Below are positions 1-60,756 of a stretch of 60,756 nucleotides of DNA, piece by piece. This DNA is from a virus. Taxonomy: Duplodnaviria > Caudoviricetes. How positions within the stretch are numbered: position 1 is the stretch's first letter; each line of letters starts with the position of its first letter. The stretch spans positions 1 to 60,756 of the IMG/VR virus record IMGVR_UViG_3300031977_001837, one strand, 5' to 3'. Made by a program: the position numbers and the translations under genes. Under the pieces are notes generated by a model. The model searched no databases and was not told the DNA's origin. It saw nothing but the letters and a program-made list of their open reading frames with translations.

Positions 1-1385
1 GGGTCGCTTGCGTCAGCAATACCGACCTTGATTCTGTTGCTTCCGCCAATCTCGCCTTTAGAATAAAGTGGCGCACCAAGAGGAATTGTTGAACCTTCAT
101 CGTTGCGAACATTGAAATGCACTGTGGACTCAACATCTCTATCGCCACGATACAAATGGCCGTCTTCGTTGTTAAGCCAAATAGTATCTTGGGGATTTGT
201 GCTTTCGGGATTCACAGCCTGCGGCGTAAATACCATACCCGTTGGGTCAATTAAACCACTAACTGTTAATTTACCATTAATATTAAAGTCTGAACCATCC
301 CATGTTAAATTAGAAGAATGACTTAATTTTTGTGAATTATTTCCAAAAAGTATTCTATTAGCGGGAATATAATTTAATCCTGTTCCACCAAATGAAACAT
401 TAAGATTGTAAAGTCCTTTGTAATAATATATTCCGTCTGCAATTGGAGTAAAACCCCATGTTCCTTTTATATTTGGTCTATTTACTAAATGAATAGTTGC
501 GCCATATGAGTCGTTTCCTTTTAATGACGAACCACGATTAATTGTTAAATCATTAAGAGAAACAACAGAACCAAAAGGCAAAAAAGCAAAAGAACCGCTA
601 CCATCTGCTGTTGAATCTAATATCCATTTACGCCAAGTAAAAGTCCATGTTCCCATTGTAGTATTTCCGCTAACTGGTAAAGTCCAACCGGAAGTTGTTG
701 TTTGAAAAGTCCATGTCCCATACCCTCCATCAAAAAAATAATTGCTTGTATTGTTAACTAATGAAAATTGCGCAGAAGTCCCAACAAGGTCTGTTGTTCC
801 TTCTATAATAAAATTCATCAATCTATCATCACTTGATGGAGTAGCAGAAGATGGCTCAACATTGACATCGCCAAACTTCATAGATAATACTTTTACATTA
901 TATTTATTATCTGCTAATGTTGGCGCAATATATTCTGGTCTAAAGCCATTTGTAAATTGTAAATGAGGATATGTGCCAGCATCTAAAGTAATGTAATAAG
1001 AACCATCAAACTTAAAAAGTAAATTATTTCTTGCTGAACTTGTTCTAAACATATCTGTTGTATTTATTTGAACATAAGTTTTGTTAGTATTGTATGCAGG
1101 CGCACCAGAAAATGTAATTGTAGTATTAGTTGTCGAATCAATGCAGTTATCAAGACTTACTGATAAACCAGTTTCTATTTCACAATTTGTATCAAATGTA
1201 ACAATACTTGTATAAGTTGAATCTATTTGTATTATTCCAACAGTAGCAATATCCCAATAACAAGCAAATGCGCTTAAATTATTAAATTGCGCAGTATCAC
1301 CAGTAGCGGGAACTCCTGTGGGTTTCCAATTTGCAGAATTATTTGCATTGCTATTAGAAGTAGCAACCCATTCATAAACAGTCAT
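1..1385 (-). CDS. Tail fibre / virion structural protein, N-terminal part (runs off the left edge; missing from the ORF track)
   Basis: ATG at 1385 (MTVYEWVATSNSNANNSANWKPTGVP...). The segments I translated (start and 1-300) are in the same open frame, ending ...GKLTVSGLIDPTG...NVRNDEGSTIPLGAPLYSKGEIGGSNRIKVGIADASDP. Rich in T/S/G/N and beta-like. Confidence 0.7.
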   Translation of the reverse strand, partial: MTVYEWVATSNSNANNSANWKPTGVPATGDTAQFNNLSAFACYWDIATVGIIQIDSTYTSIVTFDTNCEIETGLSVSLDNCIDSTTNTTITFSGAPAYNTNKTYVQINTTDMFRTSSARNNLLFKFDGSYYITLDAGTYPHLQFTNGFRPEYIAPTLADNKYNVKVLSMKFGDVNVEPSSATPSSDDRLMNFIIEGTTDLVGTSAQFSLVNNTSNYFFDGGYGTWTFQTTTSGWTLPVSGNTTMGTWTFTWRKWILDSTADGSGSFAFLPFGSVVSLNDLTINRGSSLKGNDSYGATIHLVNRPNIKGTWGFTPIADGIYYYKGLYNLNVSFGGTGLNYIPANRILFGNNSQKLSHSSNLTWDGSDFNINGKLTVSGLIDPTGMVFTPQAVNPESTNPQDTIWLNNEDGHLYRGDRDVESTVHFNVRNDEGSTIPLGAPLYSKGEIGGSNRIKVGIADASD

Positions 1386-1390
1386 TTAAC

Positions 1391-1789
1391 TTACACCTGC
1401 CTTGAGTCGCTACTATTTATGTGAAAAGCAGACCCTTCGGCTTCGGCTATTTGTTTTACTAATCTGTCTGCTTGTGTTTCAAAGGATTTCATCTGAGCAG
1501 TTAATCTTATATCAGTCCTTCTTTGTTCCGGTTCTGGAACATACATAGGGATGGTATCAATCATTACTCTTAGACAATCAACACAAACTAAAAATTTAAT
1601 TGCTGATTCGCACTCTGTATCAGTAACTCCACTACCTTCTGCTACTCCATATAATGAAGAACTTCTGCGCATTCTTGTAATTTGCGCAGAACGAATAGTA
1701 ATGTATTCAGTGATTGTTGCGTCATTCAAACCTCTCGGTCTGTTTAACAAATCACGAATCTGACTTACTGTTGGATTTGTTATTGCCAC
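1391..1789 (-). CDS. Putative head-tail connector/adaptor protein
   Basis: 132 aa helical protein downstream of MCP; N-terminal PTVSQIRDLL pattern resembles connector proteins. Confidence 0.5.
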   Translation of the reverse strand: MAITNPTVSQIRDLLNRPRGLNDATITEYITIRSAQITRMRRSSSLYGVAEGSGVTDTECESAIKFLVCVDCLRVMIDTIPMYVPEPEQRRTDIRLTAQMKSFETQADRLVKQIAEAEGSAFHINSSDSRQV

Positions 1790-2186
1790 TCTTCTTCACC
1801 TTTTCACTGCTTTTCTTCTTTGGTGTTGATTTCTTTTCAACCTTTGGCTTTTCTGCTTTAGGCTCTGAATAAGTTTCTGTTTTAGGAACATCAATTAAAG
1901 TATGAACATCTTCACTGTAAAAAGCACGACCCATAGGGAACATTGCGCCTGTTTTAATCAAAGTGCGTGCAAAATCACTATTAGGAACAAAGACCACTGT
2001 TCCAAAAGGAATCTCGGCAGGTAAAGACTGCTTTGCATAAAATCGAGTTTTAATTCTGCGAAAAAGATAACCTTTACCTTCTCCCCAAGTGTTAAGTCTG
2101 TGCATCATTGCATCATAAGAATCTTCTTTTGGTAAAGGAATACCTTTATCTTTCAAAGCCTTAGCAACTGATGCTTTACTCTTCAT
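1752..2186 (-). CDS. Hypothetical protein with Lys-rich C-terminal tail
   Basis: ORF in the head operon; likely start at ATG 2186 (MKSKAS). Confidence 0.6.
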   Translation of the reverse strand: MKSKASVAKALKDKGIPLPKEDSYDAMMHRLNTWGEGKGYLFRRIKTRFYAKQSLPAEIPFGTVVFVPNSDFARTLIKTGAMFPMGRAFYSEDVHTLIDVPKTETYSEPKAEKPKVEKKSTPKKKSSEKVKKSGNNKSNSKSDS

Positions 2187-2400
2187 CCTTAACAACCTCT
2201 TCGATTATTTTGTCAATAGGCTTGTCTTCTTTTTTAGCCTTAGTCTTTGGTTTAGACTTTGGCTTAGAAAAAGTTGCGCACAAGTCTGCAACTTTGCGTC
2301 TGCTTGTTTCAAGAGAAACTAAGTCGGCTTCATCCTTAGACAAAGCACGACCTAATCTCTTTTCAGCGTATGCTATCAGAAAACTTGCTCTTTCAGACAA
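2176..2400 (-). CDS. Hypothetical basic protein
   Basis: TTG start preceded by a GGTGA RBS, directly after MCP. Confidence 0.6.
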   Translation of the reverse strand: MSERASFLIAYAEKRLGRALSKDEADLVSLETSRRKVADLCATFSKPKSKPKTKAKKEDKPIDKIIEEVVKDEE

Positions 2401-13085: not shown

Positions 13086-15188
13086 ATGTTGCAGAACATC
13101 GTAACCAAAATTATGATTGTATTGCTCGCAGTTGGCTTATTTGCGCCAGTTGTAGCAATCGCAATCAATCAGCATGAAGAACGACCGACCCCAGTAATGG
13201 AGACCAGTGAGCCGATGGCAGAACTCCCAGAGTTCAAACCACCAATGAGCAGACATGCGTTTAAGCGAGCAGTTCACCGTTTAGAATTAGCAAGCAAGCG
13301 CAAAAATCTCAAGGGCGCACTTCTTAGAAGGGTGCTAAATGGCACGCAGTCTAACGATTCAACCGAGGAAAATGACACGGTTGAAATCAAAACAGGCTTG
13401 CAGTGTGCCGATTGTGGATGCCTTGAAGAACATGGATATGCAATAGATGAAGAACTAAATCCGGCGCAGTGTGCCGATTGTTACTATTATCCAACCGTTG
13501 AAGAGGTTGAAATTACGACGAGGAAACACGCAAAAAGCCGAGCAGTTGACTGTTTTGCATGTGGGGTTTCAATCCATCAAGGAGAAACTAAGCACATGAT
13601 GAAATACGAAAATATGCACACCAAAAAGGCACACTGCGACCAATGCGCTGATGAAATCATAGGTCTAAAGGCTGATGAAATCATTACCAAACAGGCCCGC
13701 AGTCAATCGTTAAGCGCATTAATTGCGCCGATTTTCCTTGCCCTCGTAGTTTCCATATTTGCGCCTAAACTGGCTTTCAGTGTGCCATTCTTAGCAGTTG
13801 GAAAAATGCACTTGAGCGCAGAATTAGAAGCATGTAAAGCGGAAGGCTACAAAATACGCAGTCATTCAAAGTCAAATCCTGCTAAGTGCATTTCCTGCAA
13901 ATGCGAGATAACCAAAGGTGAATTGAAAGCAATGCTTCCTTACGCCGGATATACTCAAAATAAGGCACATTGCAGAGAATGCGCCCATATTACATGGGTC
14001 AAGATTTCAGCAAATCCAACCCCAAAAGTTGAGCCAAAAACCGACCCCGTTCCAGAGCCAAAACCGGAACCGGCAACCCAACCAAATGAGCCGACTGCGC
14101 CAAAGGTCGCAGAGAAAATTAAGACACAAATCAAAGGAGATAAGGGGTCTCAATTGGTTGAATTAATTGCTCAATTGGGTGGAGTTGATGAAGCGGAAGT
14201 CCGTCGAATTGTCAATGAGGAAACGGCGCAAATTCAAGAGAAGTTTGCCGACCAAATCAACGACCAGTTAAGCAAAATCAGCAAGCCGACACTTCTTGAA
14301 ATCAAGCCTATGAAGGGCGAGAAAATCAAGATTGAAGGAGTCCAACACCACAAGATGACTCAATTGCTGTTCTATATCATGAAGACACGCAATGAGAATA
14401 ATCTGTATCTATGGGGTGACGCCGGAACCGGAAAAACTCGCATTTGTGTGGATTTATTCGGACTATTGAAAGCCGGTGGATGGTTCAAGGAAATGGGCTT
14501 GAAGAAGGCCACAGTTGAGAAGAATGTGTTCATTCTCAGTTGTAACAAAGACATCCAATCTCAAGAGTTGTTAGGCCGTGAAAGTCCGAGATTCTTTGAT
14601 GATGGAAGCGGAAGGCCTGCCGGCGAATGGGACTTCATTCTCGGCGCACTATTGCCCGTTTTCCGTGATGGTGGAATAATTTGTCTTGATGAGATTGACC
14701 GTCTTCATGAATCAACTTTGAGCGCATTGAATGCAATCTTAGCGAATGGGTTCGTATATACTCCAAAAGGCGAGAAAATTGTGCGCCATCCGGCTTGCGT
14801 TATTGTTGGCACTGCTAACACAAAGGGCAACGGTGGAAGCGGAAAATACTCGGCCACAAGACAGCAAGACGGCGCAACTCTTGACCGTTTCACAGGTCGG
14901 AAAATCCACATTGATTATGACCCTGCAATTGAAGATTCAATCGCCGGAAGTGCTGAACTGGCGCAAAAGTTCAGAGACATGAGAAACGCATTTGAGGCAC
15001 ATGGACTTGATGAAGCAATTATCTCATACCGTTCTATAATCGTTGCACGCAATGACATTGAAGCCGGTATATCTCAAGAATATGCGCTGTATAATATCGC
15101 TTCCCAATGGGGAGAGGAAAACGCATTCAAGGCCGGATTTACCGAAGTCCCTACCTTTGACTTTTCAAGTGCGTGGGGTGGCGCATAA
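13086..15188 (+). CDS. MoxR/CbbQ/CobS-like AAA+ ATPase with TM segments and two zinc-finger modules
   Basis: Walker A GDAGTGKT, Walker B CLDEID, TANT sensor, ATLDRF Arg finger; N-terminal and internal hydrophobic helices; two CxxC...HCxxC modules. Confidence 0.85.
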   Translation: MLQNIVTKIMIVLLAVGLFAPVVAIAINQHEERPTPVMETSEPMAELPEFKPPMSRHAFKRAVHRLELASKRKNLKGALLRRVLNGTQSNDSTEENDTVEIKTGLQCADCGCLEEHGYAIDEELNPAQCADCYYYPTVEEVEITTRKHAKSRAVDCFACGVSIHQGETKHMMKYENMHTKKAHCDQCADEIIGLKADEIITKQARSQSLSALIAPIFLALVVSIFAPKLAFSVPFLAVGKMHLSAELEACKAEGYKIRSHSKSNPAKCISCKCEITKGELKAMLPYAGYTQNKAHCRECAHITWVKISANPTPKVEPKTDPVPEPKPEPATQPNEPTAPKVAEKIKTQIKGDKGSQLVELIAQLGGVDEAEVRRIVNEETAQIQEKFADQINDQLSKISKPTLLEIKPMKGEKIKIEGVQHHKMTQLLFYIMKTRNENNLYLWGDAGTGKTRICVDLFGLLKAGGWFKEMGLKKATVEKNVFILSCNKDIQSQELLGRESPRFFDDGSGRPAGEWDFILGALLPVFRDGGIICLDEIDRLHESTLSALNAILANGFVYTPKGEKIVRHPACVIVGTANTKGNGGSGKYSATRQQDGATLDRFTGRKIHIDYDPAIEDSIAGSAELAQKFRDMRNAFEAHGLDEAIISYRSIIVARNDIEAGISQEYALYNIASQWGEENAFKAGFTEVPTFDFSSAWGGA

Positions 15189-16399: not shown

Positions 16400-16688
16400 G
16401 CGCTAAATTTTTCTTCATTGGCGCAATTTTTCAAAATCGAATCAGCGCAAGCCTTGAAAATTATCCGAGCAGATTTCCCAGACCAAAAACCCAAACCGAA
16501 AAAAAAGTGCGCTCTGAAAAAAAATTGCTCGGCGCAGAAAAAATCGGTCTCGGTGTGCCTATATGCGCATGAAGTTAATACAGAATTATTTTGATATTTT
16601 ACGGAGTCGAAACCAGTCCTTCAAAATCACCATTTCAACGAGTCAATCAAGTAGGGGGTTTATATCCCTCTATATGATAGGGGAGTGC

Positions 16689-16934
16689 ATGGGAGATAGC
16701 AACACCGACCCACCACAGTCCGACGAACAGCCGACCTTATTCAGTGCAGAAATGCAACACTGCGACACTATGGAAGTGTCAACAGTGGTGTATATTATGC
16801 CGGAAGAAACCGAGTTGAATACTGAAACTCTGATGCAATTCGTTGAAGATGTAGCCAACGAAACGCAATCCATGCCATTGACATTCATGGTTTCAAAAGG
16901 CGACACAATCATAGTAAGAGGTGGAACACAATGA
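16689..16934 (+). CDS. Hypothetical acidic protein
   Basis: ATG about 29 nt after a GGTTTATA box; the ORF-track start at 16563 is probably too early. Confidence 0.6.
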   Translation: MGDSNTDPPQSDEQPTLFSAEMQHCDTMEVSTVVYIMPEETELNTETLMQFVEDVANETQSMPLTFMVSKGDTIIVRGGTQ

Positions 16935-17203
16935 ACGCAAGCGATAGAAGAAAGATAGCAAAATTGGCGAAGACTGCGCAGAATGCTTTGGGAGTTCTCG
17001 AAGACCTTCGCAGTGCAATAGAAGAGATGGTTTCAGACGAGGAATCGAAATACGATAACATGTGCGAGCGTGGGCTTGAATCCTCTCCTATGGGAGAGGC
17101 AATCGAAGAAGCAATGAACGCACTTGAAGAAGCATTCGCAGAAGTTGACGAGGCGCATACCAATCTTGAAAGCGCAATCACTACAATGGAGGAATTACAA
17201 TGA
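16931..17203 (+). CDS. Coiled-coil phage-type hypothetical protein
   Basis: MNxxxRRK...EExKYDNM...GEAIEE pattern recalled from small phage proteins; coupled start/stop. Confidence 0.7.
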   Translation: MNASDRRKIAKLAKTAQNALGVLEDLRSAIEEMVSDEESKYDNMCERGLESSPMGEAIEEAMNALEEAFAEVDEAHTNLESAITTMEELQ

Positions 17204-17730
17204 GCGCACCACAGGACAACGAAACGATTTACAGCCGAGGCTCTAAGATTGTCAAGCCTAACGGCGAAGACTGGCGCAAGACCGTTCTTCATGTGTGCAG
17301 AACGGGCGAAAAAGAGCAGTTCTATACCTTGTATATCACGCACATAGTAAAAGAATCAAAGTCAAGGTTCCACTATTCCCGATGTTGGTTTCAAAAGAAT
17401 CTATCATTAAAACTCGATAAAGCGTTAGACTGCGCAGTTAATTATGCCCAAACTGTCAATGTGTGCATTAACTCTGATGAGGTCGAGGTCAAGTATCACG
17501 AAGAACCGAGGTTCGTTTATCAAGAAATGGATGCCTTCGGCGCAAAATTCAAGATGGCTAAAAAGCGCACCGTATGGTGGGCAAACGCAACATCAGAGTT
17601 TTGGGATGAATGGAAACAGCGCAAACAGCAAATCAAGGATGCAGGTTATTGGGTCAAGAGAGTTGACGGCGGTAAGTGGCTTGTATTCAAGCGCATAGAG
17701 GACATTGAAAAAGTGTGGGAGAGTGATTGA
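17200..17730 (+). CDS. Hypothetical protein
   Basis: Coupled ATGA junction and RBS. Confidence 0.7.
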   Translation: MSAPQDNETIYSRGSKIVKPNGEDWRKTVLHVCRTGEKEQFYTLYITHIVKESKSRFHYSRCWFQKNLSLKLDKALDCAVNYAQTVNVCINSDEVEVKYHEEPRFVYQEMDAFGAKFKMAKKRTVWWANATSEFWDEWKQRKQQIKDAGYWVKRVDGGKWLVFKRIEDIEKVWESD

Positions 17731-17731
17731 G

Positions 17732-18484
17732 ATGAGTGGAGAACCAAACTGGCTACCAGAGAACCCCGAAGTAAAGCCATGCGCAAACTGCACATGGCGA
17801 TATACCGTTGACGAAATGGCTAAACTGCACTACATGTATAACAACGATAGAGTTCCACTTGCCGAGCCTGCGCACATCTGTCCGGTGTGCTTAGAGTCCA
17901 AAGAGGTTCAAGACAAGTTCCAAATCGAAGTCGCTCGCAGTGGAAAAATCAGAAGAAATGGTGATTGGGAGGCGCATAAGAGTTTCATGAGAGTTCTGCG
18001 CCATACCCATGAGGCCTATATTATGGGTAAGAAAATGAGCAAGCCGATTGAGCCGAAGCACATAACGCAGTCCATAGTGCGCAAAGAGATTGACGGCACT
18101 AAGTTTGATATTGGCTTCGTCATTATACCTAAGCGCAAGTGGGTCAATAAGATAATTCTGCGCTATGCGATTGACGGAAACCCTGCAATCATTTCAAAAT
18201 TGAAAAAGGCAATTGACTTTTACTCTAAGCCTCTCAAGCATACACACCACATATACGGGTTAAAAATCCTAAAGAACGCAGTTCTAAAAGGTATGCCGGA
18301 CATACACAGCAAAGAAATTGAGTTTCACATTATATCGAAACCAGTTGAGGGAGATGTCGCATGGTGTAGCAAAAGCGCAAATGATTTCTTGGGCTTTTTT
18401 GAGAGAATCATCAAAGAAAACATTGACGAGGACAAAATCAAAATCTTTGATATGTTCATTCAATCAAAGGAGTTGGTCGCTTGA
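17732..18484 (+). CDS. Hypothetical protein with N-terminal CxxC-CxxC zinc finger
   Basis: CANC...CPVC. Confidence 0.65.
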   Translation: MSGEPNWLPENPEVKPCANCTWRYTVDEMAKLHYMYNNDRVPLAEPAHICPVCLESKEVQDKFQIEVARSGKIRRNGDWEAHKSFMRVLRHTHEAYIMGKKMSKPIEPKHITQSIVRKEIDGTKFDIGFVIIPKRKWVNKIILRYAIDGNPAIISKLKKAIDFYSKPLKHTHHIYGLKILKNAVLKGMPDIHSKEIEFHIISKPVEGDVAWCSKSANDFLGFFERIIKENIDEDKIKIFDMFIQSKELVA

Positions 18485-18945
18485 TTAGCGCAACTCTTGA
18501 AACTCTGCTCTGCTTGCTGTTCATCATTTGCGTAGCATGGGTATATTCGACACTTACCGAGTTCCTACTCAATAATGCGTCTGTGGCGGTTTCTGACGGC
18601 GTTGACTCCCCTCCTGTCAACAATGTTGCTATACCTGCCGAAAACGAAACACCACAGCGCACCCAATCTCATCAAGACGACTGCCACGCTTGCGCAGGCA
18701 CTTGCAGAGCATCCCACATGAAGTGGGCTAAAGGGAGGGCTTTGGATTATCTGCCCCACGACCCACAGAACGCAGTTGCGTCATTCATTTCAGATATGGG
18801 TAAGCATCCAAAAACGCAAGACCTTGCGCTAATCGCAATCCCTATGGCGCAACTTGCCTTAGTTGATACCCCCGAAGGATTGAAGCGCATGATTGAAGGA
18901 TTCAATGAGCATTCATGCGATTGCTCAAGAGGTGATGCGCAATGA
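18481..18945 (+). CDS. Hypothetical membrane-anchored protein with a phage-type C-terminal domain
   Basis: N-terminal TM helix; KGRALDYL...AVASFISDMGKHP motif. Confidence 0.6.
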   Translation: MISATLETLLCLLFIICVAWVYSTLTEFLLNNASVAVSDGVDSPPVNNVAIPAENETPQRTQSHQDDCHACAGTCRASHMKWAKGRALDYLPHDPQNAVASFISDMGKHPKTQDLALIAIPMAQLALVDTPEGLKRMIEGFNEHSCDCSRGDAQ

Positions 18946-19852: not shown

Positions 19853-20121
19853 GCAAACCAAACTTTAGGAGTCGTCTCAATCCGGCGCATGACGCACAAC
19901 AACAATGGGTTGACTCAAACCTTTGGTGTGCTTGCTCAATGTGCGGTAAGGCACTGAACAAACCCTTCGGGAGAGAGCGCAGTCATGCCGAGTATATCAT
20001 AATCGAATCGAGGGCATCCGTCGGTTCGCCATCCACCCACAAAATGCGTGACGCATTGCCACAAAAAATGCACATCGGACTTTGTTGCATAGACAAATTG
20101 ACGCAGGGGGTGAACAACTGA
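19849..20121 (+). CDS. Hypothetical Cys-rich protein
   Basis: CSMC...GLCC; GGTGA RBS. Confidence 0.65.
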   Translation: MSKPNFRSRLNPAHDAQQQWVDSNLWCACSMCGKALNKPFGRERSHAEYIIIESRASVGSPSTHKMRDALPQKMHIGLCCIDKLTQGVNN

Positions 20122-20516
20122 TGCGCAGAAACGAATGGGGCGAGCCTGTTGAAGATGTTGACATGTTCGGCAACCCTGCCGGATTGACTGACGGTAGCGG
20201 TGTAATCAATATGCGCAACGGCACTTTCGTCGGAACACATGACTATGACACCATCAGACTGCCCGATGAATTAGGCGGTCAATGGTGCGCAGTTTTACAT
20301 TCAGAAATTGTCAACCTGCCCGACGGCAGAATTGGCAGATACCACACACTTTCCCATGATGAGATTGACTGCATCAGCCTGCTTAACGGCGACGGTGCGC
20401 TATGGGTGCGCAAGGTCAAACCTGCACCCTGCCAACACATCAACTATGTTGAGACTTTAGATGGCGCAGAATGTCTTGATTGCGGAGAAAAATATGAAGG
20501 AGAGGAAGAAGAATGA
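20121..20516 (+). CDS. Hypothetical protein
   Basis: GGTGA RBS; C-terminal CQH...CLDC. Confidence 0.65.
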   Translation: MRRNEWGEPVEDVDMFGNPAGLTDGSGVINMRNGTFVGTHDYDTIRLPDELGGQWCAVLHSEIVNLPDGRIGRYHTLSHDEIDCISLLNGDGALWVRKVKPAPCQHINYVETLDGAECLDCGEKYEGEEEE

Positions 20517-21869: not shown

Positions 21870-22325
21870 ATGACTCAAACAACATGGATTGAAATTAAGC
21901 CGTCGGGCGAGACTAATGTAATCTCGCATGACGAGGACATAACGATGGAACTACTTCAAGAGAAGGTCGGAGGATATTTTGAGAACTGCAATTTTTCAAG
22001 AGGAACGCCGTTCTTCTTGAGGGTATCAGAAGACACATTCGATTGCTTTGAAGTCGAAGAGTTGTGGTGTGATGAAGATGGGCAGGCCAAACAATTACAA
22101 TTCAACCCTCTGGGAACCTACTGCGCATATAACAAATCACCCGAGCATTCACCTAATTTGATTGTCGGGGTCGTTGTTGCTAAACTGCGCAAACTCGATT
22201 ATCAAGCAAACCAAAGCACAGTTTTTGAAACTATGACGGGACTCAGTATGTTTGAGTTGCGCAAGGAGTATTTTCAAAGTCACATGTTGCCTATCTTCGG
22301 CTATGAAGAGGGGGTGTATGAATGA
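21870..22325 (+). CDS. DUF3846-like protein
   Basis: LQEKVGGYFE...LWCDEDG...FNPLGT...LIVGVVV pattern; promoter and GGAG RBS upstream of ATG 21870. Confidence 0.65.
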   Translation: MTQTTWIEIKPSGETNVISHDEDITMELLQEKVGGYFENCNFSRGTPFFLRVSEDTFDCFEVEELWCDEDGQAKQLQFNPLGTYCAYNKSPEHSPNLIVGVVVAKLRKLDYQANQSTVFETMTGLSMFELRKEYFQSHMLPIFGYEEGVYE

Positions 22326-23035
22326 ATAACATGAAAGAAGTAGTCAATGAAGCGGTTGACTTGTTTATGTTTTTCCTTGAGAATAGAATGGTTGTTAATC
22401 CCGATTTGGGAGTTCTCAAATCAGACGGAACCAGTGCATTCAAAGCCCTTTCAGACGAGAATGCGCAGAAGATGCAAGAGTGTATTGATATATGCGTAAC
22501 CATTCTGAAAGAAGATTATGAGATTGATGCGTATGAAATCGCTATGTGGCTCACTGTTCACATGGGGATTGGTCGTCATGTTCAACTTAGGTTAGACGGT
22601 GACGGTGGGGAAGAATCGAGATACTTCAACAGAGAGTATATAGAGAGGATTAGAAGCAACATGTTTGACAATTTCGGAGTCAATGTAATCAAAGATTATG
22701 CCAACGAGAGTGCGCAAACCCGTTCAGAAAGGCGTGCTTCTTACATGATAAAGTTGATTTCAGAAGTCCAAAACCTTCACCCGATTTTTGACGACAGCGA
22801 GCAAACAAGCGCAAGCAGTGGAGGCTTTACAGCGATTGCCTTAGTCACCGACCTTACTCCTTTGGGATGGTCTGACATAGTCACAAAGGCAGTAACAAAG
22901 GACTTAGGGGGCGCATATACCGGACAAATCGAGTCTGCGCCCGAAGATATGAAAGACGAAGTGGTTAGTTGCCTTGATGATTATTTGTTGAAGACCGGAG
23001 ACTATGATGACGACCCGACTAAGGAGTGGGACTAA
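22322..23035 (+). CDS. Hypothetical protein
   Basis: 237 aa ORF, coupled junction. Confidence 0.7.
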   Translation: MNNMKEVVNEAVDLFMFFLENRMVVNPDLGVLKSDGTSAFKALSDENAQKMQECIDICVTILKEDYEIDAYEIAMWLTVHMGIGRHVQLRLDGDGGEESRYFNREYIERIRSNMFDNFGVNVIKDYANESAQTRSERRASYMIKLISEVQNLHPIFDDSEQTSASSGGFTAIALVTDLTPLGWSDIVTKAVTKDLGGAYTGQIESAPEDMKDEVVSCLDDYLLKTGDYDDDPTKEWD

Positions 23036-29066: not shown

Positions 29067-29274
29067 AGGACTTGTTTGCGTTGTTGATTTCACAAGCATT
29101 GTAGTTTGTGATGATGACTGGTCGCCTAATCATATTGAGCATGTTGGTATCAATACAGTAATTAGTAAAATTAAAACTATTTCAGATGACCCTAAAGCAA
29201 AGGGTTATTTGAGAGTCGAAACTTCTGACGATAGACATTTGATGGTTAACGCAGGCGATTGGGGGCCGAAGTAA
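29059..29274 (+). CDS. Hypothetical protein
   Basis: Overlapping ORF in the operon. Confidence 0.55.
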   Translation: MSKGLVCVVDFTSIVVCDDDWSPNHIEHVGINTVISKIKTISDDPKAKGYLRVETSDDRHLMVNAGDWGPK

Positions 29275-34940: not shown

Positions 34941-34945
34941 AATAG

Positions 34946-35914
34946 ATGGCAAACGCATGGGCTAAAGCAAAGGGCGCAAACAAGTCTGTTCCGGCAGACG
35001 AACCTCCAATGCGTGACATGAGGGCGCATTACGCAGAGTTATTCAGTCGCCAACGAGAGCGCACACAAGCAATCCGCATGGCTATGGTCGGTAAGGAAAA
35101 TACCGCAAAGACTGGAACCGCAATCTCTCTCGCTTTACAGCACTTAGAGAAGGTAGGCAAGCAAGATTCTAATGTAGTGATTATTGATGTTGATAACAGC
35201 GCAGTCCAAACTGTGTCTGCTAACTATCCCGATAAGGAAAATATTCAAGTCATTCCTCTCTATGATGAATTGGATGACACAATCTTCAACGAAGATAATT
35301 CGACTAACTATACTGCGCTCGTTGACAAGATGGGTTATTTCATTAACATTATTGCGCAAAAATGCCGTGATGGTGAAATCGGCGCAGTGATTATGGATGG
35401 CATGTCAACATTCCTAAAGTGGTGTGAACATGCTATGACCGATGTTCTGATGAATCGCTCTAAGAATCCAGTCAATGTTGAAGACGGAGAGAAGTTTAAT
35501 CAAGCAGAATGGCGCATACGCAATCAATTGTTCAGAGACATTGCTAATCGTGCGCACCAACTACCTGTTGACGCAGTATTCTTTACATTCCATCTAAAGG
35601 ACAAGAAGCAGTTTGCTGATATTGGTAACGGTCAAAAGGGACTTATGAAGATTGGTGAAGAACCGGAATGGGAAAAAGGCACTATGCGCCTATTCTCTCA
35701 ACAACTTTGGATGAGCAGATACACTAAGAAGGGCGATTTAGCCAGTGGTGTGAAGGCCGACTCTGCGCTTGAAGAAGGCGCATGGGAAATCCGATGCTCA
35801 ATTGAAGAAATGAAGGGGTTCAATCAAGAATATCTCGGCACTACTCACACGGTATTGTCGGTGAAAGACGGTAAAGTTGTATGGAATGGCTTACCCTTCT
35901 TGACATGGGGTTGA
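34946..35914 (+). CDS. RecA-fold/AAA_24 (Sak4-like) ATPase, putative recombinase
   Basis: Walker A GKENTAKT, IIDVD, Walker B VIMDG and FTFH; adjacent to the SSB-like gene. Confidence 0.65.
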   Translation: MANAWAKAKGANKSVPADEPPMRDMRAHYAELFSRQRERTQAIRMAMVGKENTAKTGTAISLALQHLEKVGKQDSNVVIIDVDNSAVQTVSANYPDKENIQVIPLYDELDDTIFNEDNSTNYTALVDKMGYFINIIAQKCRDGEIGAVIMDGMSTFLKWCEHAMTDVLMNRSKNPVNVEDGEKFNQAEWRIRNQLFRDIANRAHQLPVDAVFFTFHLKDKKQFADIGNGQKGLMKIGEEPEWEKGTMRLFSQQLWMSRYTKKGDLASGVKADSALEEGAWEIRCSIEEMKGFNQEYLGTTHTVLSVKDGKVVWNGLPFLTWG

Positions 35915-37736: not shown

Positions 37737-37740
37737 GAGC

Positions 37741-38220
37741 ATGGATAACAACATGCGCATAGAAGTGATAGAAGGTCATCCCCTTCTTGAAGCGGTTTGG
37801 GGCGGTAATTTACCAAAGGCTTCTCAAAAAGGCTACCCTTCTTTCTATGACGGGATGAAGTTTTGGGTTTTATTTATTGACGAAGAACCAGTTGGTTACA
37901 CAGGCTCATTAGAGATGGAATCAATTGTGTTTGTCGGAAATACATTCGTGCGCAAAGAGTGGCGCAGTAAAGGGTTGCATAGACACATTCTGAAAGTGCG
38001 CAATTCCTCGTTACCTAACAAAACTAAGATAACTATACTAAATCCTTTGAAGGGAACACAAATGAAAAATCTTGAAAGTGTGGTATCTTCTCTCGGATAT
38101 ACAAAGGTCGAGTCCTATGAAGATGTTGAAGACTGTATGCACCAAAGGATTTATGAGGACATAGAGAATCATAATATTTGGAGGCTTGACAGTGATAGTG
38201 GAGAGAACGAAGAAGAATGA
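37741..38220 (+). CDS. GNAT-family acetyltransferase
   Basis: EEPVGY and FVRKEWRSKGL acetyl-CoA-binding motif A. Confidence 0.65.
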   Translation: MDNNMRIEVIEGHPLLEAVWGGNLPKASQKGYPSFYDGMKFWVLFIDEEPVGYTGSLEMESIVFVGNTFVRKEWRSKGLHRHILKVRNSSLPNKTKITILNPLKGTQMKNLESVVSSLGYTKVESYEDVEDCMHQRIYEDIENHNIWRLDSDSGENEEE

Positions 38221-40423
38221 TATTTTAGTTCGATACCGAACAGAAGACGGTAAGCGTGCCGAAGAAAGGTATTCGTGTAGCCCATTTTGTTATGTCGAAG
38301 AAAGTAGCATAGGTAAATTGACCCCTCCCTTCGCAGTTTTGCCCGATGAGGACTACACTGGACTTTACGGAGAGAAACTGCGCAGAGTTGTTTTTCAAAA
38401 TACCGATGATTTGTCGAAAGCGTCTAAGAAAGTTAAGACATGGGAGGCAAACATTGCGCACAGCAACAGAGTTCTGGTTGAACACAATGTCAATATCCCG
38501 ATGTATGAACATAGAACATGGTATTTCGACATGGAATGGATGATTAATTCCGGTAAAATAACAATCATAGTAATACATGACTCCTTTGAAGGTGAGTTTG
38601 TGTTGGCGCATCATTCAGACTATGAAGAAGGAATGTATGACGCAATACCTTGTTTGAATCACCCAGAAGGTCTGCAAGAGTGCGCAAAGACGGATAGACC
38701 TTTCAAGTTGTTCAAGGATGAAAAAAGCATGTTGGAGTTTTTTGCGCAACTTATGAGAAGAAAAGACCCAGATATTTTGACAGGGTGGAATGTTGTAAAT
38801 GCTGACATTCAGCAACTATTCAAGAGGTTCAAGGCCAATGGGATTGATATTCGCTCACTATCCCCTATGCGTAAAGTGCGCTTCGACTTCGGAGAATGGG
38901 CGCAACCAATCGCAGGCTACAATACAATTGATTTGATGATTGCTTTCAAGAAACTATGGACTTTGAAGAATGGACAATTACCTGCAATGGGATTAGGCGC
39001 AGTATCAGAATACTGTCTCAAGGAAACTAAGGTTGAGTTAGAAAACGGACACGATACATATTACAGCGACTTCGGCACTTACTTAGATTACGCAAGACAA
39101 GATGTGCGCCTTTTGCCTAAGTTAGATGGTTTGGTTGGCGCACTTGATTACTTTACTGCTATTCAGCACATCGTTCAATGCGACATACGCACGACCCCGT
39201 ATGTGAGCAAAATATTTCCAATTCTTGCGCTTCGTGATAGAGAGTTTGACAAACAGATACCGAGCAAACCGCAATTCGCTAAGGTTGACTACACTGGCGC
39301 AGATATTCAAGACCCCGTTATCGGTGTCTATGAGAACATAGGAATAATGGATATTAAGGCAATGTATCATAGTAATGTGAAACTACACAACATTTGTTGG
39401 ACTACTCTTGACGAAACAGGTTTTGACTGCGGAAATGGTGTCATGTTTAGCAAAAGCAAAACTGGTTTGCTCGGCAGACAGATGGATAACATGACTGTTT
39501 TGCGCAACAAATACAAGAAACTTATGAAGGGTGCAACAACTGATAAAGAGCGCAAGAAATATGATGCGCTACAATATGCGACAAAATCTTTAGTTGCCTC
39601 CATGTATGGTGTAGCGGGAGACAGCAAGTGCGGTTTCTATCATCCCGATATTGCCTCTGCCATTACATACACAAGCAGGCAGACCTTGTTCAAACTTAGA
39701 GATATTGCGAATGAGTTAGGTTGCACAGTGCGCTACGGACATACTGATTCGATTATGTGTGATGTTGATTCTCCCGAAAAAGGGCTTGAATTGTTGGGCG
39801 TAGTGAATCGGCGCATGAGTCCTATTGAAACCGAGTTTGAAAAGTGGTGTGATACCTTCTTAATCATGGCTAAGAACCGATACGCAGGCAGTGTTTCATG
39901 GACTGAGGGCGAGCATCACCCTGCGCAGATTTATGTTAAGGGTATTGAGATGAAACAAGGCAGACTACCACAAGCCTTGAAAAGCGCAATGGGTTCTGTT
40001 ATCGAAGGTATTTTACAGCGCAAAAATGAAAATGAAATCACTTCTTCAATTGAAGAATTGCTTAGAAAGGTTGTGCGCAAAGAAGTCGCAGTTCGTGATT
40101 TGTGTATCAAGGCGAAGTTGAGTAAGAATCTTAACCAGTATAGAGTTCTGGGAGAAGCAAGAGCAGGTGCGCAGTGGGCTAATACCCACTTAGGAAAGGG
40201 CTACCGAAAGGATGATTATTTCTTGACAACTCTAAACGAAGAAGGGGATTACATAGCCTTTGACGACCCATCAGAAATAGAAGGGATTGCGCAAATAGGT
40301 TACTCTAATATCGCTAAGAAGTTTATTTTCGACAAAGTTTTACCATACTATGAAGTCATGGGGTGGGACATTATCAAACTTGAAACCGCTTTGTCGGGAG
40401 AAGATGAAATCGTTTGGCTGTGA
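38186..40423 (+). CDS. polB: Family B DNA polymerase with variant catalytic motifs
   Basis: Exonuclease motifs YFDME, LTGWN, YARQD; polymerase motifs DIKAMYHS, KSLVASMYG, YGHTDS, KNRY, VKGIE. Confidence 0.93.
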   Translation: MTVIVERTKKNDILVRYRTEDGKRAEERYSCSPFCYVEESSIGKLTPPFAVLPDEDYTGLYGEKLRRVVFQNTDDLSKASKKVKTWEANIAHSNRVLVEHNVNIPMYEHRTWYFDMEWMINSGKITIIVIHDSFEGEFVLAHHSDYEEGMYDAIPCLNHPEGLQECAKTDRPFKLFKDEKSMLEFFAQLMRRKDPDILTGWNVVNADIQQLFKRFKANGIDIRSLSPMRKVRFDFGEWAQPIAGYNTIDLMIAFKKLWTLKNGQLPAMGLGAVSEYCLKETKVELENGHDTYYSDFGTYLDYARQDVRLLPKLDGLVGALDYFTAIQHIVQCDIRTTPYVSKIFPILALRDREFDKQIPSKPQFAKVDYTGADIQDPVIGVYENIGIMDIKAMYHSNVKLHNICWTTLDETGFDCGNGVMFSKSKTGLLGRQMDNMTVLRNKYKKLMKGATTDKERKKYDALQYATKSLVASMYGVAGDSKCGFYHPDIASAITYTSRQTLFKLRDIANELGCTVRYGHTDSIMCDVDSPEKGLELLGVVNRRMSPIETEFEKWCDTFLIMAKNRYAGSVSWTEGEHHPAQIYVKGIEMKQGRLPQALKSAMGSVIEGILQRKNENEITSSIEELLRKVVRKEVAVRDLCIKAKLSKNLNQYRVLGEARAGAQWANTHLGKGYRKDDYFLTTLNEEGDYIAFDDPSEIEGIAQIGYSNIAKKFIFDKVLPYYEVMGWDIIKLETALSGEDEIVWL

Positions 40424-43810: not shown

Positions 43811-46800
43811 TCAATATGGTCTCATGCTTAGGCTTTGCGCATTACCTGCATTGCTGTATCTTCTCATTTTAACAGACAAAGAATGGAATGTTATAGAGTC
43901 ATAACCCGAATTATCGTTGCCCTGTGCCGGCTTTCTCTCTATATTTACTTTCAAAGTGTTACCCGATACATTTGCGCCGTTAATAGTGTTAGGACTAAAG
44001 ATAGTCACTTGCTGTCTTGAAGAACTACCATTTATCAAAACGGTTTCCGATTTAGAGTCTCCTGTTTCAGAACAAGAAACGGTAGTTGTTATTTCACAAA
44101 TGTCTGATGATGACTCACCAAATGAAACTTGCGCAATCACACTAACGAATGAACCTGCGCTCACATCATTAGGCACACGGACATTTACAGAGTTGCTATG
44201 ACTTTCTCCCTGCGCACCCGCTTCTGGGTCTGTTATTCCGGCAAGCGCAAAGCCATCGTTTGTAAGAATGCTTGCGCCTTCGCTCGACATGATAGAAGAT
44301 TCAATCCCGTCAATATCTCTGTCGGCAGAAAGCGCAGTTGCCGGTCTGTTTTGACCGATAATGCCAAAGTCGCCAGTTGCCAAACCAACATCTGCTTTGA
44401 AGTCTGCTTTGCCCTTTAGACCTCTGAATGCGCCAACAGAAAGCATGTTATTAGAGAGACCGGCAAAGAAGGAAGATGCGTCACCTCCGCCAGTAATGCC
44501 AGTTGAAGGCAAGAATGGTTGCGCACTTACCCCTCCCCCTCCGCCAACCGGCGGTCTTGGGAAACTTGGGGGTAACGGTGGAACCGGAGATTGTGGTCTT
44601 GGAGGCGAGTTTGGAGAACCGCCGTCTGCGATAGTTTTGAACATACTCGCCAAACCATAACCGAAGTGCTTATCTGTCCTCTGCAAATCTAACTGAACAG
44701 TATCAACATCTCTTGAGTTCTTATTCCAATTTATGCCGTTGATAGTTAGAGTCTCCGAAGTTAAATCAATATGAGTATCTGTAAATGATATTGTGGTTGC
44801 AGGCTGATAGACCAAATCATCAACTATACACAATCTTGGCGCATAGTAAAGACCTCTTGTGTTGTGCGCTTTTGCGCCGGAAAATCCATCTAAACAATAA
44901 CCTAACGGGAATGCGCTGTATTCGTTTGTAGTGGAAAAGGAGTGTCCGAATACACTAACAGAGTTACTAAGTGTATCGTGTGCCGTTCCACTTTCTAACT
45001 CTTCATCCATTCTGCGCAAAAGACCTAATAGGTAATCATAATCAACTGAAAAGGTAATGTATTTATCTGTTGATGAATAAGTGTCTGGGGTTTTGACTCT
45101 GTATAATCCGTTTCCGTCAACTACAATAGAATTGTAATTACTTGCAGAGTAAGAGCCTGCGTCATATTCTGGTGGCAGATTGTTAATAGTATCTTCGACT
45201 TCATCAAAAGGTATGTCAAATAAATGCAGTCTAAATGTAGCAGTATCGTCAACCGGAGAAGTAGCCTGTCCTGTTGAAGCAGAACCTTCAATAGTTATGC
45301 AAAGTCTAATTTCTTGATTTGTGCCTTCGCTTAGTTTCGGTGTATTTTTATCAACATACATTACCTTTAGCGCACTTGTAAGACTTCTTGTTGCGTATTG
45401 AGGGTGGCCTCTGTATCTCGGTAGCCCATACGCATAATGAATGTCAACCGTAGCAGTGGGAACACTAAATCCAGTCTCACAAAATATGCTTATAGAGCCT
45501 CCGTCGGTCACATCGGTAAGGGTTTGCCATCCAGTAGTCAATGTGGTAACTGCGCCATAAACACCATTTCCTGTTGAATCATATCTTGCAGTTCCAGTTC
45601 CGCTTAAAAGGTCTATTACTCCTACTGCGCTTTGCGCAACCCCATCTGCTCTTTTAACAAGTATGCCGTTATTGGCAAGAGTATCATCTTGTGGTATTGC
45701 GTAAAGACCTGCGCCAGTCGTTGAGCCGTTAGTGCTTTGGATAGTAAAGTCTGCGTCAGTAGCAGAAGCATGTCTAAATCGAGTATTATTGCTGTCTCTA
45801 TAATCTTCTATACCCTTGTTAGCAAATCCTCCCCATATGCTACTCCATGAAGCGTTAGTCTTTCTATTATAATCATACAGCCTTACTACTGAATCTTGAA
45901 CATAGCCGTATCTGCCACCAGTAAGCATTTTGCTCTGTTCGTTTGCGCCCAACAAAACTTCTGCGCTAATAGCGACATTGCTATCCTTTTCACGCAAATA
46001 TTCTTGTTTTGCGAGAGCAAGTGCTTCATCTCTATTGAATATGTTTGGGTATTGTAAAGTGCGCCACCTTGTTATTGCGTTTTCCGTTGGTTCTGGGAAA
46101 TCGGCAAAGTTACTATTACCGTTGTAATAAACACGAACATTTGTTATTTGCGAACCTAACTTTGTAGTCATATTACTTTGTAGCAAGTTTGTTCTATCAA
46201 AACTTAGACCCGAAGGTATTCTTTGTCTAATTGTAAAAATATTATCTCTATCCATAAGCCATGAAAAAGTAGTTTGATGCGTGCCTCCGCTACCATCCTT
46301 TTCAGTAATATTCTTTGCTATGTTCATCATTGACATATTTCTTCCATCAAACATAGAACCAAAATCATCTTCATTAGAATCGTTGACTTCTTTTAACATG
46401 TGTCTTGTTTTTGGCATATAGAAAGAGCAAGGCATGTTTGTGTTTGTGGCCCATGTGTCTCCAAACGCAAGAGAAAACATACTGCGCATTTTATCATGCG
46501 AGTAATATGTTCCAATATTTTTACTTTTTACTAATCCTTCAATATTTACAGAAAGACGCAACGGGAATATAGCCGAAGGAGTATTATAGACCAAAACAGT
46601 TTGGAATACACCGTCGGGATTGGTTTCGGTTTTGCGCACAATATTTGCTCTCGATGAAGGAGTTTGCCCATTTCCAGTAATGTTTGACCTTTCAGCAGTT
46701 AGTAATGTGTTTATTGTGTTTATATCAACTATTGATTCTGGGTCAAAAGAAGTAATATAGACTCCTGTTAGTTTATCTCCTAATGTTGCGTCTGTTCCCT

Positions 46801-59218: not shown

Positions 59219-59222
59219 TTTA

Positions 59223-59396
59223 TCAATCTTCCTTGTATTCTATACTTATTGCTTTTGAAGTTGGCACTATCGCAAAATGACGAGTTTCACCATCCCTGTA
59301 TAATCGGTAGCCATGCGCTGTTTCTTCAATCTTTATATTAGTGTAACATTTTTCTGGGGGAATATAGACTATTTTTCCTCTTCTTTTTTCAGTCAT
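59223..59396 (-). CDS. Hypothetical small protein
   Basis: GGTGA RBS upstream of ATG (MTEKRRG). Confidence 0.55.
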   Translation of the reverse strand: MTEKRRGKIVYIPPEKCYTNIKIEETAHGYRLYRDGETRHFAIVPTSKAISIEYKED

Positions 59397-59509
59397 GCTT
59401 TTCACCTGTAATCAAATCTTTCTTTTGCTCTTTCTCTGCTTTGTCTAAGTCTTTTGACTTTGCGTCAAACCAACTATCTAACATTTTACATCTTGTCATT
59501 TTATTCACC

Positions 59510-60756
59510 TCACGGTATTATTCCGCCCACCAAAGGCGCAAGAGCATTTGCTAATCTTTCTATTGCTTCTTGAATATTAGCAGGGGGAGGAGCCGCCCAT
59601 GAAGGGGCTGAAATGGTTGGTGTAAAAATATCAGTTTCAGCCTGTCCTGCTTGTAAATAAGCAACATCAGCAAGAGTCGAAGCCGCCGTTAAATCTCCGT
59701 TAGCATCAGCAACTAATACTGCGTTTGTCACACCTTGTCTAAATGTTCCGGCTACTCTTGCTGAACCTTGAACCACTAAGCCACCTGTTGTAGCAATTCC
59801 TCCACCGGAATTAGCATCAACAAACCCTATTTCTTCTATGTCTAAAGTTTTCTTAACTGTCATACTTGTAGCAAAATCAACATAAGTGCGACTTGTATCA
59901 CCAAGAAGTGCATCATGACCCGCAGTATCAGAATCAGCGAGCATAGTTGAAAGTAAAGTCCAACCGTCACCTGTTCCTAAGTTAAATATCATGTGCAAAC
60001 TAAGGTCGTTTAGACTATTAGAAATGTAAATCTGCAACGCCGCCCCATCATATGTGCTACCTTCTTTAATTCTAAACTCAGTAAAAGGGATTTCATTACC
60101 ATACCCCGATACCGCAAAACAAGTAAGGGAATTAGAACCATCAACACCAAATTGATGACTTGCTTCTATTCGTGCGGTTCTATGTCTTGATGACCGTTTA
60201 TCTTGAATGTAAAATTGTGACATAGCCCTTTGGCTTGAAGAACCACCTAAAGCATCCCATCCTTTTACTACTGCAAAAGTCCACCATCCGGTAGCGTAAT
60301 CTATGGCTAAGTGTTCAGTTTGTATTATATCTGTATTAACTGTATAACTACCGCTACCTGTTCTTTCCATTAGACCATTAGCAGAAAAATCAGAATCCAT
60401 AATTGCGCCTGCCGAAGCAACATTAGTAGCATCGGTCACATCTGCCCCATCTTCAACATTAATATGACTTCTAAGAGTAGGTGCATCCACGCCAAGAGCG
60501 ATAGTGCCACTTGTTGTAATAGGAGAACCGGAATCAACTTCAATACCATCTGAACCCGATATTGCTACGCTTGTGACTGTTCCACTACCACCGCCACCGC
60601 CTCCACTTGCGGCGATAGTAAGGTCGCCACCCGCCCCACCGTCTGTAAGTGTAATGTTTGTTCCGGCAACAAGCCTTCGGGCTTGTGGGTGTGTGGATTC
60701 TGTGTTCACCATGAGAAATGAGCAGTTTGGACTATCATTCGTTCTGCCAATAGCGG
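59510..60756 (-). CDS. Tail fibre C-terminal part (runs off the right edge)
   Basis: Frame is open upstream of the ORF-track ATG (AIGRTNDSPNCSFLM...). Fibre motifs LVAGTNITLT, GGGGSGTVTSVAI, GSPITTSGTI, INVEDGADVTDATNV. Confidence 0.75.
   Translation of the reverse strand, partial: AIGRTNDSPNCSFLMVNTESTHPQARRLVAGTNITLTDGGAGGDLTIAASGGGGGGSGTVTSVAISGSDGIEVDSGSPITTSGTIALGVDAPTLRSHINVEDGADVTDATNVASAGAIMDSDFSANGLMERTGSGSYTVNTDIIQTEHLAIDYATGWWTFAVVKGWDALGGSSSQRAMSQFYIQDKRSSRHRTARIEASHQFGVDGSNSLTCFAVSGYGNEIPFTEFRIKEGSTYDGAALQIYISNSLNDLSLHMIFNLGTGDGWTLLSTMLADSDTAGHDALLGDTSRTYVDFATSMTVKKTLDIEEIGFVDANSGGGIATTGGLVVQGSARVAGTFRQGVTNAVLVADANGDLTAASTLADVAYLQAGQAETDIFTPTISAPSWAAPPPANIQEAIERLANALAPLVGGIIP

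Follow-up and report, generated by a model that had tools for sequence, protein, structure and literature searches.

Record IMGVR_UViG_3300031977_001837 of the IMG/VR database, a tailed virus (Duplodnaviria; Caudoviricetes), comprises 60,756 bp with an estimated completeness of 98%, and the entire record is referred to here as the window. Throughout its length (1..60756), the window harbors an iterated word, GCGCA (TGCGC on the complementary strand), amounting to 453 GCGC cores, 608 GCGCA on both strands combined, and 155 copies of the self-overlapping form TGCGCA. The GC content is 40.7%. On the basis of Pfam and PHROGs matches, the window encodes a portal, a large terminase, a tail tube, and a tape measure as structural proteins. 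Its replication genes include a family B DNA polymerase (polB, 38186..40423, plus strand), which serves as the family-tree marker, an RFC-like clamp loader, an AAA_5/MCM-like ATPase with a DUF7192 partner, and a deoxynucleoside monophosphate kinase, while the nuclease-type genes encode an Mre11-like phosphoesterase, a PD-(D/E)XK nuclease, and an XPF/ERCC4-HhH2 nuclease. The closest named relatives of the polymerase are found in haloarchaeal tailed viruses, at merely 22–24% identity.

In all, 18 public runs from approximately seven studies of marine, estuarine, and sediment samples contain near-identical sequence, so material for modification-aware sequencing exists. Four runs, belonging to four studies, yielded contigs that match positions 30001–40000 with 0–2 differences per long piece, and one of these runs carries no flag as a potential source of the window. 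Since this region is reproduced across four studies, the composition of the window is not an assembly artefact.

Enrichment of GCGCA over null models

Base composition predicts 103.5 GCGC per window (1.7 per kb), corresponding to a 4.4-fold excess. The first-pass annotation, made from the letters alone, had assumed approximately 1 per kb and a near ten-fold enrichment; the former is too low and the latter overstates the genome-wide excess. Its counts for three stretches are exact upon recounting, with 10 GCGC in 13141..13984, 25 in 33830..35785, and 9 in 43835..44435. The flank rule that it had noted for the instances it checked extends to the entire window, in which a T precedes or an A follows the core in 453 of 453 GCGC. 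The most common flanks are T.A (155), G.A (89), T.C (74), A.A (71), and T.T (64).

The excess persists under shuffles that preserve dinucleotides or codons, under which the earlier annotation had considered that it might disappear. GCGCA is found 608 times versus 110.4 ± 13.2 in dinucleotide-preserving shuffles, none of 100 of which attains the observed count. Within the 75 open reading frames (ORFs), 431 GCGC are present versus 196.4 ± 10.5 in 200 synonymous-codon shuffles, 140.8 ± 11.8 under codon permutation (n = 200), and 153.5 ± 4.9 in 12 synonymous shuffles in which 33 absent words are held absent. A dinucleotide or codon artefact is rejected, because the excess withstands both types of shuffle as well as the avoidance-constrained one. 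The codon usage of the window itself is rich in GCG, CGC, and GCA, and its most over-represented trinucleotide is GCA/TGC (1.66-fold). Codon use is nevertheless insufficient as a cause, as had been argued from the occurrence of the word in all reading frames and between genes: the frames hold 169, 151, and 111 GCGC, and intergenic DNA holds 23 versus 5.6 expected (4.1-fold), compared with 4.4-fold in shared ORFs.

TGCGCA itself occurs 155 times versus 9.1 expected (17-fold). GCGC is enriched 2.4–7.4-fold in every 5-kb segment, with the lowest values in the structural modules. The spacing of the sites is Poisson-like (coefficient of variation 1.07–1.24), and spacing analysis of the window reveals no periodicity and no pair-distance peak, lending no support to the regular array for a DNA-condensing protein that had been raised as an option. 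No conserved context extends beyond the hexamer TGCGCA, and a longer hidden motif is rejected. Non-palindromic GCGCA lies on the sense versus the antisense strand in a ratio of 200:82 (71%), while shuffles yield 65–68%. GCGCA is very probably a lineage-specific, actively maintained iterated word, present on both strands and across the whole genome of a marine virus that otherwise evades restriction by deleting nearly all 4- and 6-bp palindromes.

The palindrome purge and the flank rule

TGCGCA is an outlier in a window that is otherwise purged of palindromes. ACGT, AGCT, CGCG, CTAG, GATC, and GTAC are each absent, versus 104–221 expected copies, and 40 of the 56 6-bp palindromes with at least five expected copies are missing, versus 186 of 1988 non-palindromic pairs. 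Palindromic words are eliminated far more often than non-palindromic ones, the pattern by which restriction-site avoidance is recognized. Elimination of host sites is complete or near-complete in about one viral genome in ten (Rusinov et al. 2018, PMC6286503), and avoidance as set out in the sections of that survey used here explains the six zero 4-mers, the 40 of 56 absent palindromes, and the absolute flank rule. Unlike the window, these sections describe no single restriction word that is strongly enriched at the same time.

The flank rule is absolute because all GCGC contexts that lack a preceding T or a following A contain CGCG or RGCGCY, both of which are absent from the window. The rule therefore has two causes: the enrichment is specific to GCGCA as a 5-mer, and CGCG and RGCGCY are purged. 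The excess as a pure by-product of the purge is rejected: constrained shuffles reach only 153.5 ± 4.9 of the 431 GCGC in ORFs, and purged sister genomes deplete GCGC.

The purge is shared by the family, whereas the set of avoided words is fluid. GATC is absent from 11 of 11 whole genomes (the window, its three close whole-genome relatives G001–G003, and G004–G010) and AGCT from 10 of 11, at GC contents of 36–48%. CTAG, GTAC, TTGCAA, and TCCGGA switch between zero and expectation or above among close relatives. TTGCAA, absent from the window, occurs 51–61 times (approximately three-fold over expectation) in G001–G003; CTAG and GTAC, likewise absent, occur 36 and 61 times in G002; and TCCGGA is absent from the window but found 18–26 times in G003–G005. 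Conversely, ACATGT, CATATG, and GTTAAC occur in the window and are missing from G001.

Several words that are not perfect palindromes are also eliminated. GTAGA/TCTAC is absent from the window versus approximately 80 (Markov) or 131 (composition) expected copies, CCWGG and GGWCC are absent, GGAGC/GCTCC occurs once versus 51, and GTAAAC, GGATAC, ATCGAC, GCCAGA, CTACAG, GAGCAC, and others are absent versus 13–31 expected. The loss of non-palindromic words suggests additional pressure from nucleases with asymmetric sites.

The enriched unit and its recurrence in unrelated viruses

Clustered (triple) TGCGCA was found in at least 118 IMG/VR stretches, of which 80 loci, mostly local clusters only, are considered here; the number of lineages carrying the word is a lower bound. 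Among the matches listed, one virus of 24.5 kb (G012, GC 36.6%), found solely via its TGCGCA clusters, does not purge GATC, AGCT, CTAG, or CGCG. It contains 98 GCGC versus 26 expected and a 9.8-fold excess of TGCGCA, and synonymous shuffling does not remove this surplus (84 GCGC versus 41 ± 5.7). At least eight G012-like loci show observed/expected ratios (o/e) of 2.35–4.2 for GCGC and 4.7–12 for TGCGCA.

The tolerance of CGCG in the G012-like lineage allows the enriched unit to be separated from the purge. In seven pooled G012-like loci (116 kb), the o/e values are 6.5 for AGCGCA, 6.0 for GGCGCA, 2.6 for CGCGCA, and 8.2 for TGCGCA, while contexts without the T or A flank remain near or below expectation (AGCGCG 1.4, CGCGCC 1.0, and CGCGCG 0.76) and RGCGCY is at 0–0.25. 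In the clade of the window, AGCGCA, GGCGCA, and TGCGCA reach 4.8, 11.6, and 18.6, respectively, and the remaining GCGC contexts are at 0. Single GCGCA sites are nearly as enriched as the palindromic double, and in the G012-like pool the double site scores approximately the sum of two single sites, not their product. The enriched unit is thus the asymmetric 5-mer GCGCA, and TGCGCA is two overlapping copies of it. The first-pass annotation had written the unit in this form, and only GCGCA contexts are raised in the CGCG-tolerant lineage. Among one-letter deviants of TGCGCA, the outer variants are enriched 4–13-fold (GGCGCA 8–13-fold, AGCGCA 4–7-fold), compared with approximately 0.8–2.6-fold for the inner ones.

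A further record, G011, is temperate phage-like, with an integrase, RecT, and YqaJ, and exhibits a milder TGCGCA excess of 4.2-fold. Neither G011 nor the G012-like viruses have a protein in common with the window (tblastn, E ≤ 1e-3). The same word arose independently in an unrelated virus group, without the general purge.

Evolution within the polB family

The family was sampled through the best 80 of 137 IMG/VR stretches with polB relatives, at 48–85% identity. Seventeen of these 80 loci have a GCGC o/e of 2.0–4.4 together with dense TGCGCA, while the remaining 63 have a GCGC o/e of 0–1.15 and 0–5 TGCGCA. In a polB tree that omitted one short row, the window and 16 of the 17 enriched loci form a single clade (Shimodaira–Hasegawa-like approximate likelihood ratio test support 98) with one change of state. 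The excess of the word originated once in the family of the window. Whole genomes present the same division, with 155, 196, 168, and 227 TGCGCA inside the clade and 0, 0, 0, 1, 1, 0, and 1 outside it. The seven depleted sister genomes contain 3 TGCGCA versus 68 expected. RGCGCY is absent from four genomes of the enriched clade, in which approximately 119 copies are expected.

Within the clade, the sites are conserved in place. Compared with three clade genomes that are 73–75% identical to the window at the DNA level, GCGC is retained at 48–54% of positions versus 32–37% for all 4-mers, and TGCGCA at 62 of 112, 61 of 107, and 57 of 105 sites. At fourfold-degenerate third codon positions, conservation amounts to 145/202, 138/197, and 127/182 (70–72%) within GCGC and to 146/298, 125/273, and 129/263 (46–49%) in the same codons outside GCGC. 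This contrast is significant at p = 3.5e-7 to 1.7e-5, the first pair of counts giving 3.5e-7.

Sites also turn over, with 85 common to four genomes, 61 restricted to the window, and 24 lost in the window alone. Gains derive from many different precursor words, and no one-step neighbor of the word is depleted, including GTGC/GCAC and TGCACA. The variety of precursors and the undepleted neighbors suggest that the word as such is advantageous, as opposed to being the product of one mutational path. A drain of GTGC/GCAC resembling very-short-patch repair is rejected, as both words are undepleted.

One gene of the window departs from this pattern. The tail-fibre-like ORF at 59510..60712 (minus strand, phrog_24456) contains two GCGC (0.77-fold), has no homologue in G001–G003, and is 67% identical to its counterpart in G009, a distant family member whose genome is of the depleted type. 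It looks like a recent import that is not yet loaded with the word, thereby providing an internal control, and the pattern points to recent horizontal exchange of a host-recognition module.

Methyltransferases and the host

The window encodes no recognizable methyltransferase, as the first-pass annotation had stated. None was found with Pfam (37 ORFs of at least 150 aa), PHROGs (69 ORFs), or NCBIfam (42 ORFs), or by six-frame searches with PF00145 and PF01555. G002 and G003 have none either. G001 carries a 283-aa N4/N6 DNA methyltransferase (PF01555, E 5e-55; G001:C1:50411-51142) that is absent from the window, G002, and G003. Unlike the window, G012 carries a C5 methyltransferase gene (PF00145, E 7.9e-70). 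Among solved structures, M.HhaI is the nearest to the catalytic domain of the enzyme, but no alignment to M.HhaI was obtained for its target-recognition region. Relatives at 61–100% identity occur in eight loci enriched in the word, and other relatives (60–73%) occur in genomes without the excess.

A scan of contigs from metagenome-assembled genomes (MAGs) for a host yielded only a 2.8-kb Rhodobiaceae contig, a 61-kb viral-looking Opitutales contig, and a 23%-identical Nanohalarchaeota match, and an atlas search for a host lead returned viral clusters only. The MAG matches are taken to be mis-binned viral contigs. The Opitutales contig (L108, 61,226 bp) is of genome length and encodes a polB 46% identical to that of the window. 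It is probably a mis-binned virus of the same family, so its bin carries no evidence on the host. In the Nanohalarchaeota MAG (G018, from L109; 1.2 Mb), TGCGCA occurs 543 times versus 36 for the reversed control ACGCGT, and CGCG avoidance may explain part of this contrast.

Shine–Dalgarno motifs of the GGAGG/GGTGA type lie 5–10 nt ahead of many start codons of the window (e.g., 19092, 21359, and 32764); they argue against a Bacteroidota host but are uninformative as between archaea and other bacteria. The gene set (polB, RFC-like, XPF, Mre11-like, and CobS/CobT-like) is compatible with, although not diagnostic of, the magroviruses (viruses of Poseidoniales) as outlined in section 3.5 of PMC11706807. 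In the portion of a marine methylome study considered here (PMC8919816), GATC is methylated in marine archaeal MAGs and AGCT in Thaumarchaeota (82–91%). The universal GATC/AGCT purge of the family matches these methylomes, a possible clue to the host.

ORFs specific to the enriched clade

Nine ORFs are limited to the enriched clade among the whole genomes compared. ENR-71 is a 71-aa ORF (29059..29274, plus strand) that is found only in the GCGCA-enriched clade. It is present in the window, in G001–G003, and in every enriched locus spanning the site, and is missing from the seven depleted genomes as well as from five sister loci in which both neighboring genes are kept. All 14 IMG/VR loci that encode ENR-71 have a GCGC o/e of 2.4–4.8. 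Its structural model (predicted local distance difference test, pLDDT, 94) has an SH3-like β-barrel fold, and its top PDB matches are bacterial SH3b domains with weak Z-scores of 5–7.3. ENR-71 is a candidate correlate of the word. Because a single clade saw the one origin of the gene and the one origin of the trait, their co-occurrence amounts to a single event.

Four further ORFs form a block on the plus strand at 16563..18945 (16563–16934, 16931–17203, 17200–17730, and 18481–18945), with homologues in 3 of 3 enriched and 0 of 7 depleted whole genomes and no Pfam or NCBIfam matches. The model of ORF 17200–17730 (pLDDT 87.5) has no clear relative in the PDB (top Z-score 5.7), and a Rossmann methyltransferase fold is rejected by this predicted model. 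Also clade-specific are a 144-aa ORF with a Cys-rich acidic C-terminus (20082..20516, plus strand), for which the atlas offers no lead, and an acidic 237-aa ORF (22322..23035, plus strand) without methyltransferase motifs. Pfam searches of the clade-specific proteins at E ≤ 0.5 return coiled-coil noise only, and none of the clade-specific genes of the window is present in G011 or G012.

Possible functions of the word

The reading preferred here, with a probability of roughly 0.3, is that the word is a protective, Chi-like self or stop signal read by the host. A sequence-reading DNA-processing system of the host would treat GCGCA-rich DNA as its own, or as a place to stop, and the word would be kept for that reason. 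As a first choice, GCGCA would be a Chi-like attenuator of an end-processing helicase–nuclease; such a signal would also limit spacer acquisition. The virus would in this manner pair site avoidance, directed at restriction enzymes, with site enrichment, directed at a second defence. The reader of the word is most likely host-encoded because unrelated viruses converge on the word without common genes, and a Chi-like signal is preferred owing to the asymmetric 5-mer, the additive counts across strands, and the clear benefit for linear viral DNA.

The Chi site of Bacillus subtilis is a 5-mer, phages that depend on host recombination accumulate the Chi of their host, and Chi density restricts adaptation of clustered regularly interspaced short palindromic repeats (CRISPR) from self DNA. 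Like Chi, the word is short and asymmetric, lies on both strands, would be specific to a host clade and convergently acquirable by unrelated viruses, and has a rationale in linear viral DNA.

Several observations weigh against a Chi-like role. The searches for a host described above yielded neither an assignment nor a reader of the word. Unlike that of Chi, the strand polarity is no higher than coding gives (71% sense versus 65–68% in shuffles), and in G002, which is bounded by direct terminal repeats, the orientation of GCGCA tracks the gene blocks and not the ends. On the two strands together, GCGCA occurs once per approximately 100 bp, a density much higher than those known for Chi. An archaeal host would, to our knowledge, have no RecBCD/AddAB-type enzyme. 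The purge of GATC and AGCT resembles the marine archaeal methylomes reported in the part of PMC8919816 cited above. Sites that are Poisson-spaced, as enriched between genes as within them, and less enriched in structural genes would also result from a neutral fixation bias. Furthermore, GCGC, TGCGCA, and RGCGCY are classic restriction-modification (R-M) words, and a link to methylation fits them at least as naturally.

Such a link is nearly as good an account, although it too is only tentatively held. The word would be similar to the highly iterated palindromes (HIPs) of cyanobacteria and would be modified by a GCGCA/TGCGCA methyltransferase, which the host would supply for the window and the virus itself would encode in the second lineage. 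Accumulation could reflect a usefulness of methylated sites or a ratchet of methyl-directed repair like that proposed for HIP1. The core is a classic R-M word, and its near-exclusion from sister genomes (3 TGCGCA versus 68 expected in seven genomes) indicates that R-M systems in the host range of the family do see it; the flip from exclusion to a 17–20-fold excess fits a gain of protection. The C5 methyltransferase of G012, with its M.HhaI-like catalytic domain, and the eight enriched loci with relatives of the enzyme point in the same direction, as does N4-methylcytosine at GCGC, which is known in marine microbes from the cited part of PMC8919816.

HIPs are 8-mers of cyanobacterial genomes that occur at approximately 1 per kb alongside an encoded cognate methyltransferase, according to the portion of Elhai 2015 used here (PMC4390886). 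On the same source, the word resembles HIP1 in being short, GC-rich, and far over expectation in all frames and between genes, in overlapping an R-M site, and in the clustering of its one-letter deviants at the outer letters (outer 4–13-fold, inner approximately 1–2-fold). As in HIPs, a palindrome is far over expectation, with 155 TGCGCA (17-fold) in the window and 168–227 in three relatives. Unlike HIPs, the unit is a 5-mer (a 6-mer when doubled) carried by a virus, its density is 2.6–7.5 per kb versus approximately 1 per kb (PMC4390886, same portion), and other palindromes are purged. Two further features of HIPs are missing from the window, in that no methyltransferase is encoded and the half-site, not the palindrome, is the unit.

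This asymmetry of the unit counts against methylation, as do the gene contents: the window, G002, and G003 have no methyltransferase, and G001 has only its lineage-specific N4/N6 enzyme. Four genomes under strong pressure to gain GCGC still have none of approximately 119 expected RGCGCY, which means that GCGC in general enjoys no protection. Nor are GTGC/GCAC and TGCACA, the products of deamination, depleted. Relatives of the G012 enzyme at 60–73% identity are also found in non-enriched genomes, and its target-recognition region is unaligned to M.HhaI.

A further proposal, rather doubtful, is that site enrichment is a form of anti-defence, in which several unrelated marine viruses would load GCGCA since an undescribed host system, possibly archaeal, gauges its density as self. 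This system could be a helicase–nuclease, an adaptation machine, or a methyl-reader. If so, GCGCA would be the first Chi-like self word found via viruses, the mirror image of site avoidance.

It is unlikely that the word serves as the site of an architectural or protective protein encoded by the virus, such as ENR-71 or another ORFan of the clade, that would coat or mark the genome. Several ORFs are exclusive to the enriched clade, ENR-71 co-occurs with the word perfectly (15 of 15 records, versus none of five sister loci with both flanks), and its model is a confident small β-barrel, a fold class that includes the DNA binders Sso7d/Cren7 and the C-terminal domains of integrases. However, this correlation is a single event, G011 and G012-like viruses carry the word without a homologue of any protein of the window, the structural matches of ENR-71 are weak and are to cell-wall-binding SH3b domains, and the Poisson-like spacing has no periodicity.

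Less likely still is a neutral fixation bias without function, arising from a lineage-specific property of replication or repair comparable to very-short-patch repair or biased gene conversion. Such a bias would be consistent with the equal enrichment of intergenic and coding DNA, the Poisson-like spacing, the weaker signal in constrained structural genes, its absence from the imported gene, and the excess of gains over losses on the branch of the window (61 versus 24). It is at odds with the many undepleted precursors from which gains arise and with enrichment of the same word in viruses with unrelated replication genes; moreover, no clade-specific repair gene is recognized with Pfam, PHROGs, or NCBIfam.

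Phage primases read trinucleotides, and that of SP6 reads GCA, the trinucleotide that tops the window together with TGC (1.66-fold). Dense recognition sites of a viral primase for lagging-strand priming are nonetheless very improbable, as no primase was recognized in the window, none of its replication proteins recurs in the converging lineages, and sisters with orthologous replication genes lack the word. A by-product of codon and amino-acid usage plus the palindrome purge has next to no probability: the purge does account for the absence of GCGC without a T or A flank and the codons are rich in GCG, CGC, and GCA, but this reading is refuted by the synonymous (431 versus 196 ± 10) and purge-constrained (153.5 ± 4.9) shuffles, by the 4.1-fold enrichment of intergenic DNA, and by equally purged sister lineages that deplete GCGC.

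Relation to other sequence signals

Iterated words such as Chi, HIP1, and uptake sequences are known from cells and site avoidance is known from viruses; the window exhibits both in an extreme form. One restriction-type word is enriched 17–20-fold while palindromes are near zero, sister genomes exclude that very word, and convergence on it is seen in an unrelated lineage. The literature searched describes neither a virus in which TGCGCA/GCGCA is over-represented nor a genome that combines avoidance and enrichment. The single gain, known sister state, few ORFans of the clade, and imported-gene control constitute a comparative system for finding the reader of the word, which may be a component of host self-recognition or defence in uncultured marine microbes.

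DNA uptake sequences, a further analogy of the first-pass annotation, are 9–12-nt words of competent cells, and the viral carrier and lack of context past the 6-mer make this analogy unlikely for a 5-mer. The DNA of phage T5 bears a handful of strand-specific nicks associated with GCGC, and the window is similar in having a genome feature tied to this core; it differs by its word enrichment, of which we know no counterpart in T5.

Additional observations

Adjoining the tape measure gene, a 2,426-aa ORF of the tail region (43811-51091, minus strand) has no Pfam or PHROG match and is 28–53% identical across the family. Outside the family, other marine viral contigs that encode C5 methyltransferases are enriched in different palindromes, with AGCT at approximately 3.5-fold in L316/L317 and CCGG and GGCC at approximately 3-fold and 2.2-fold, respectively, in L340/L345/L346. 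Palindrome enrichment in viruses may therefore be more general.

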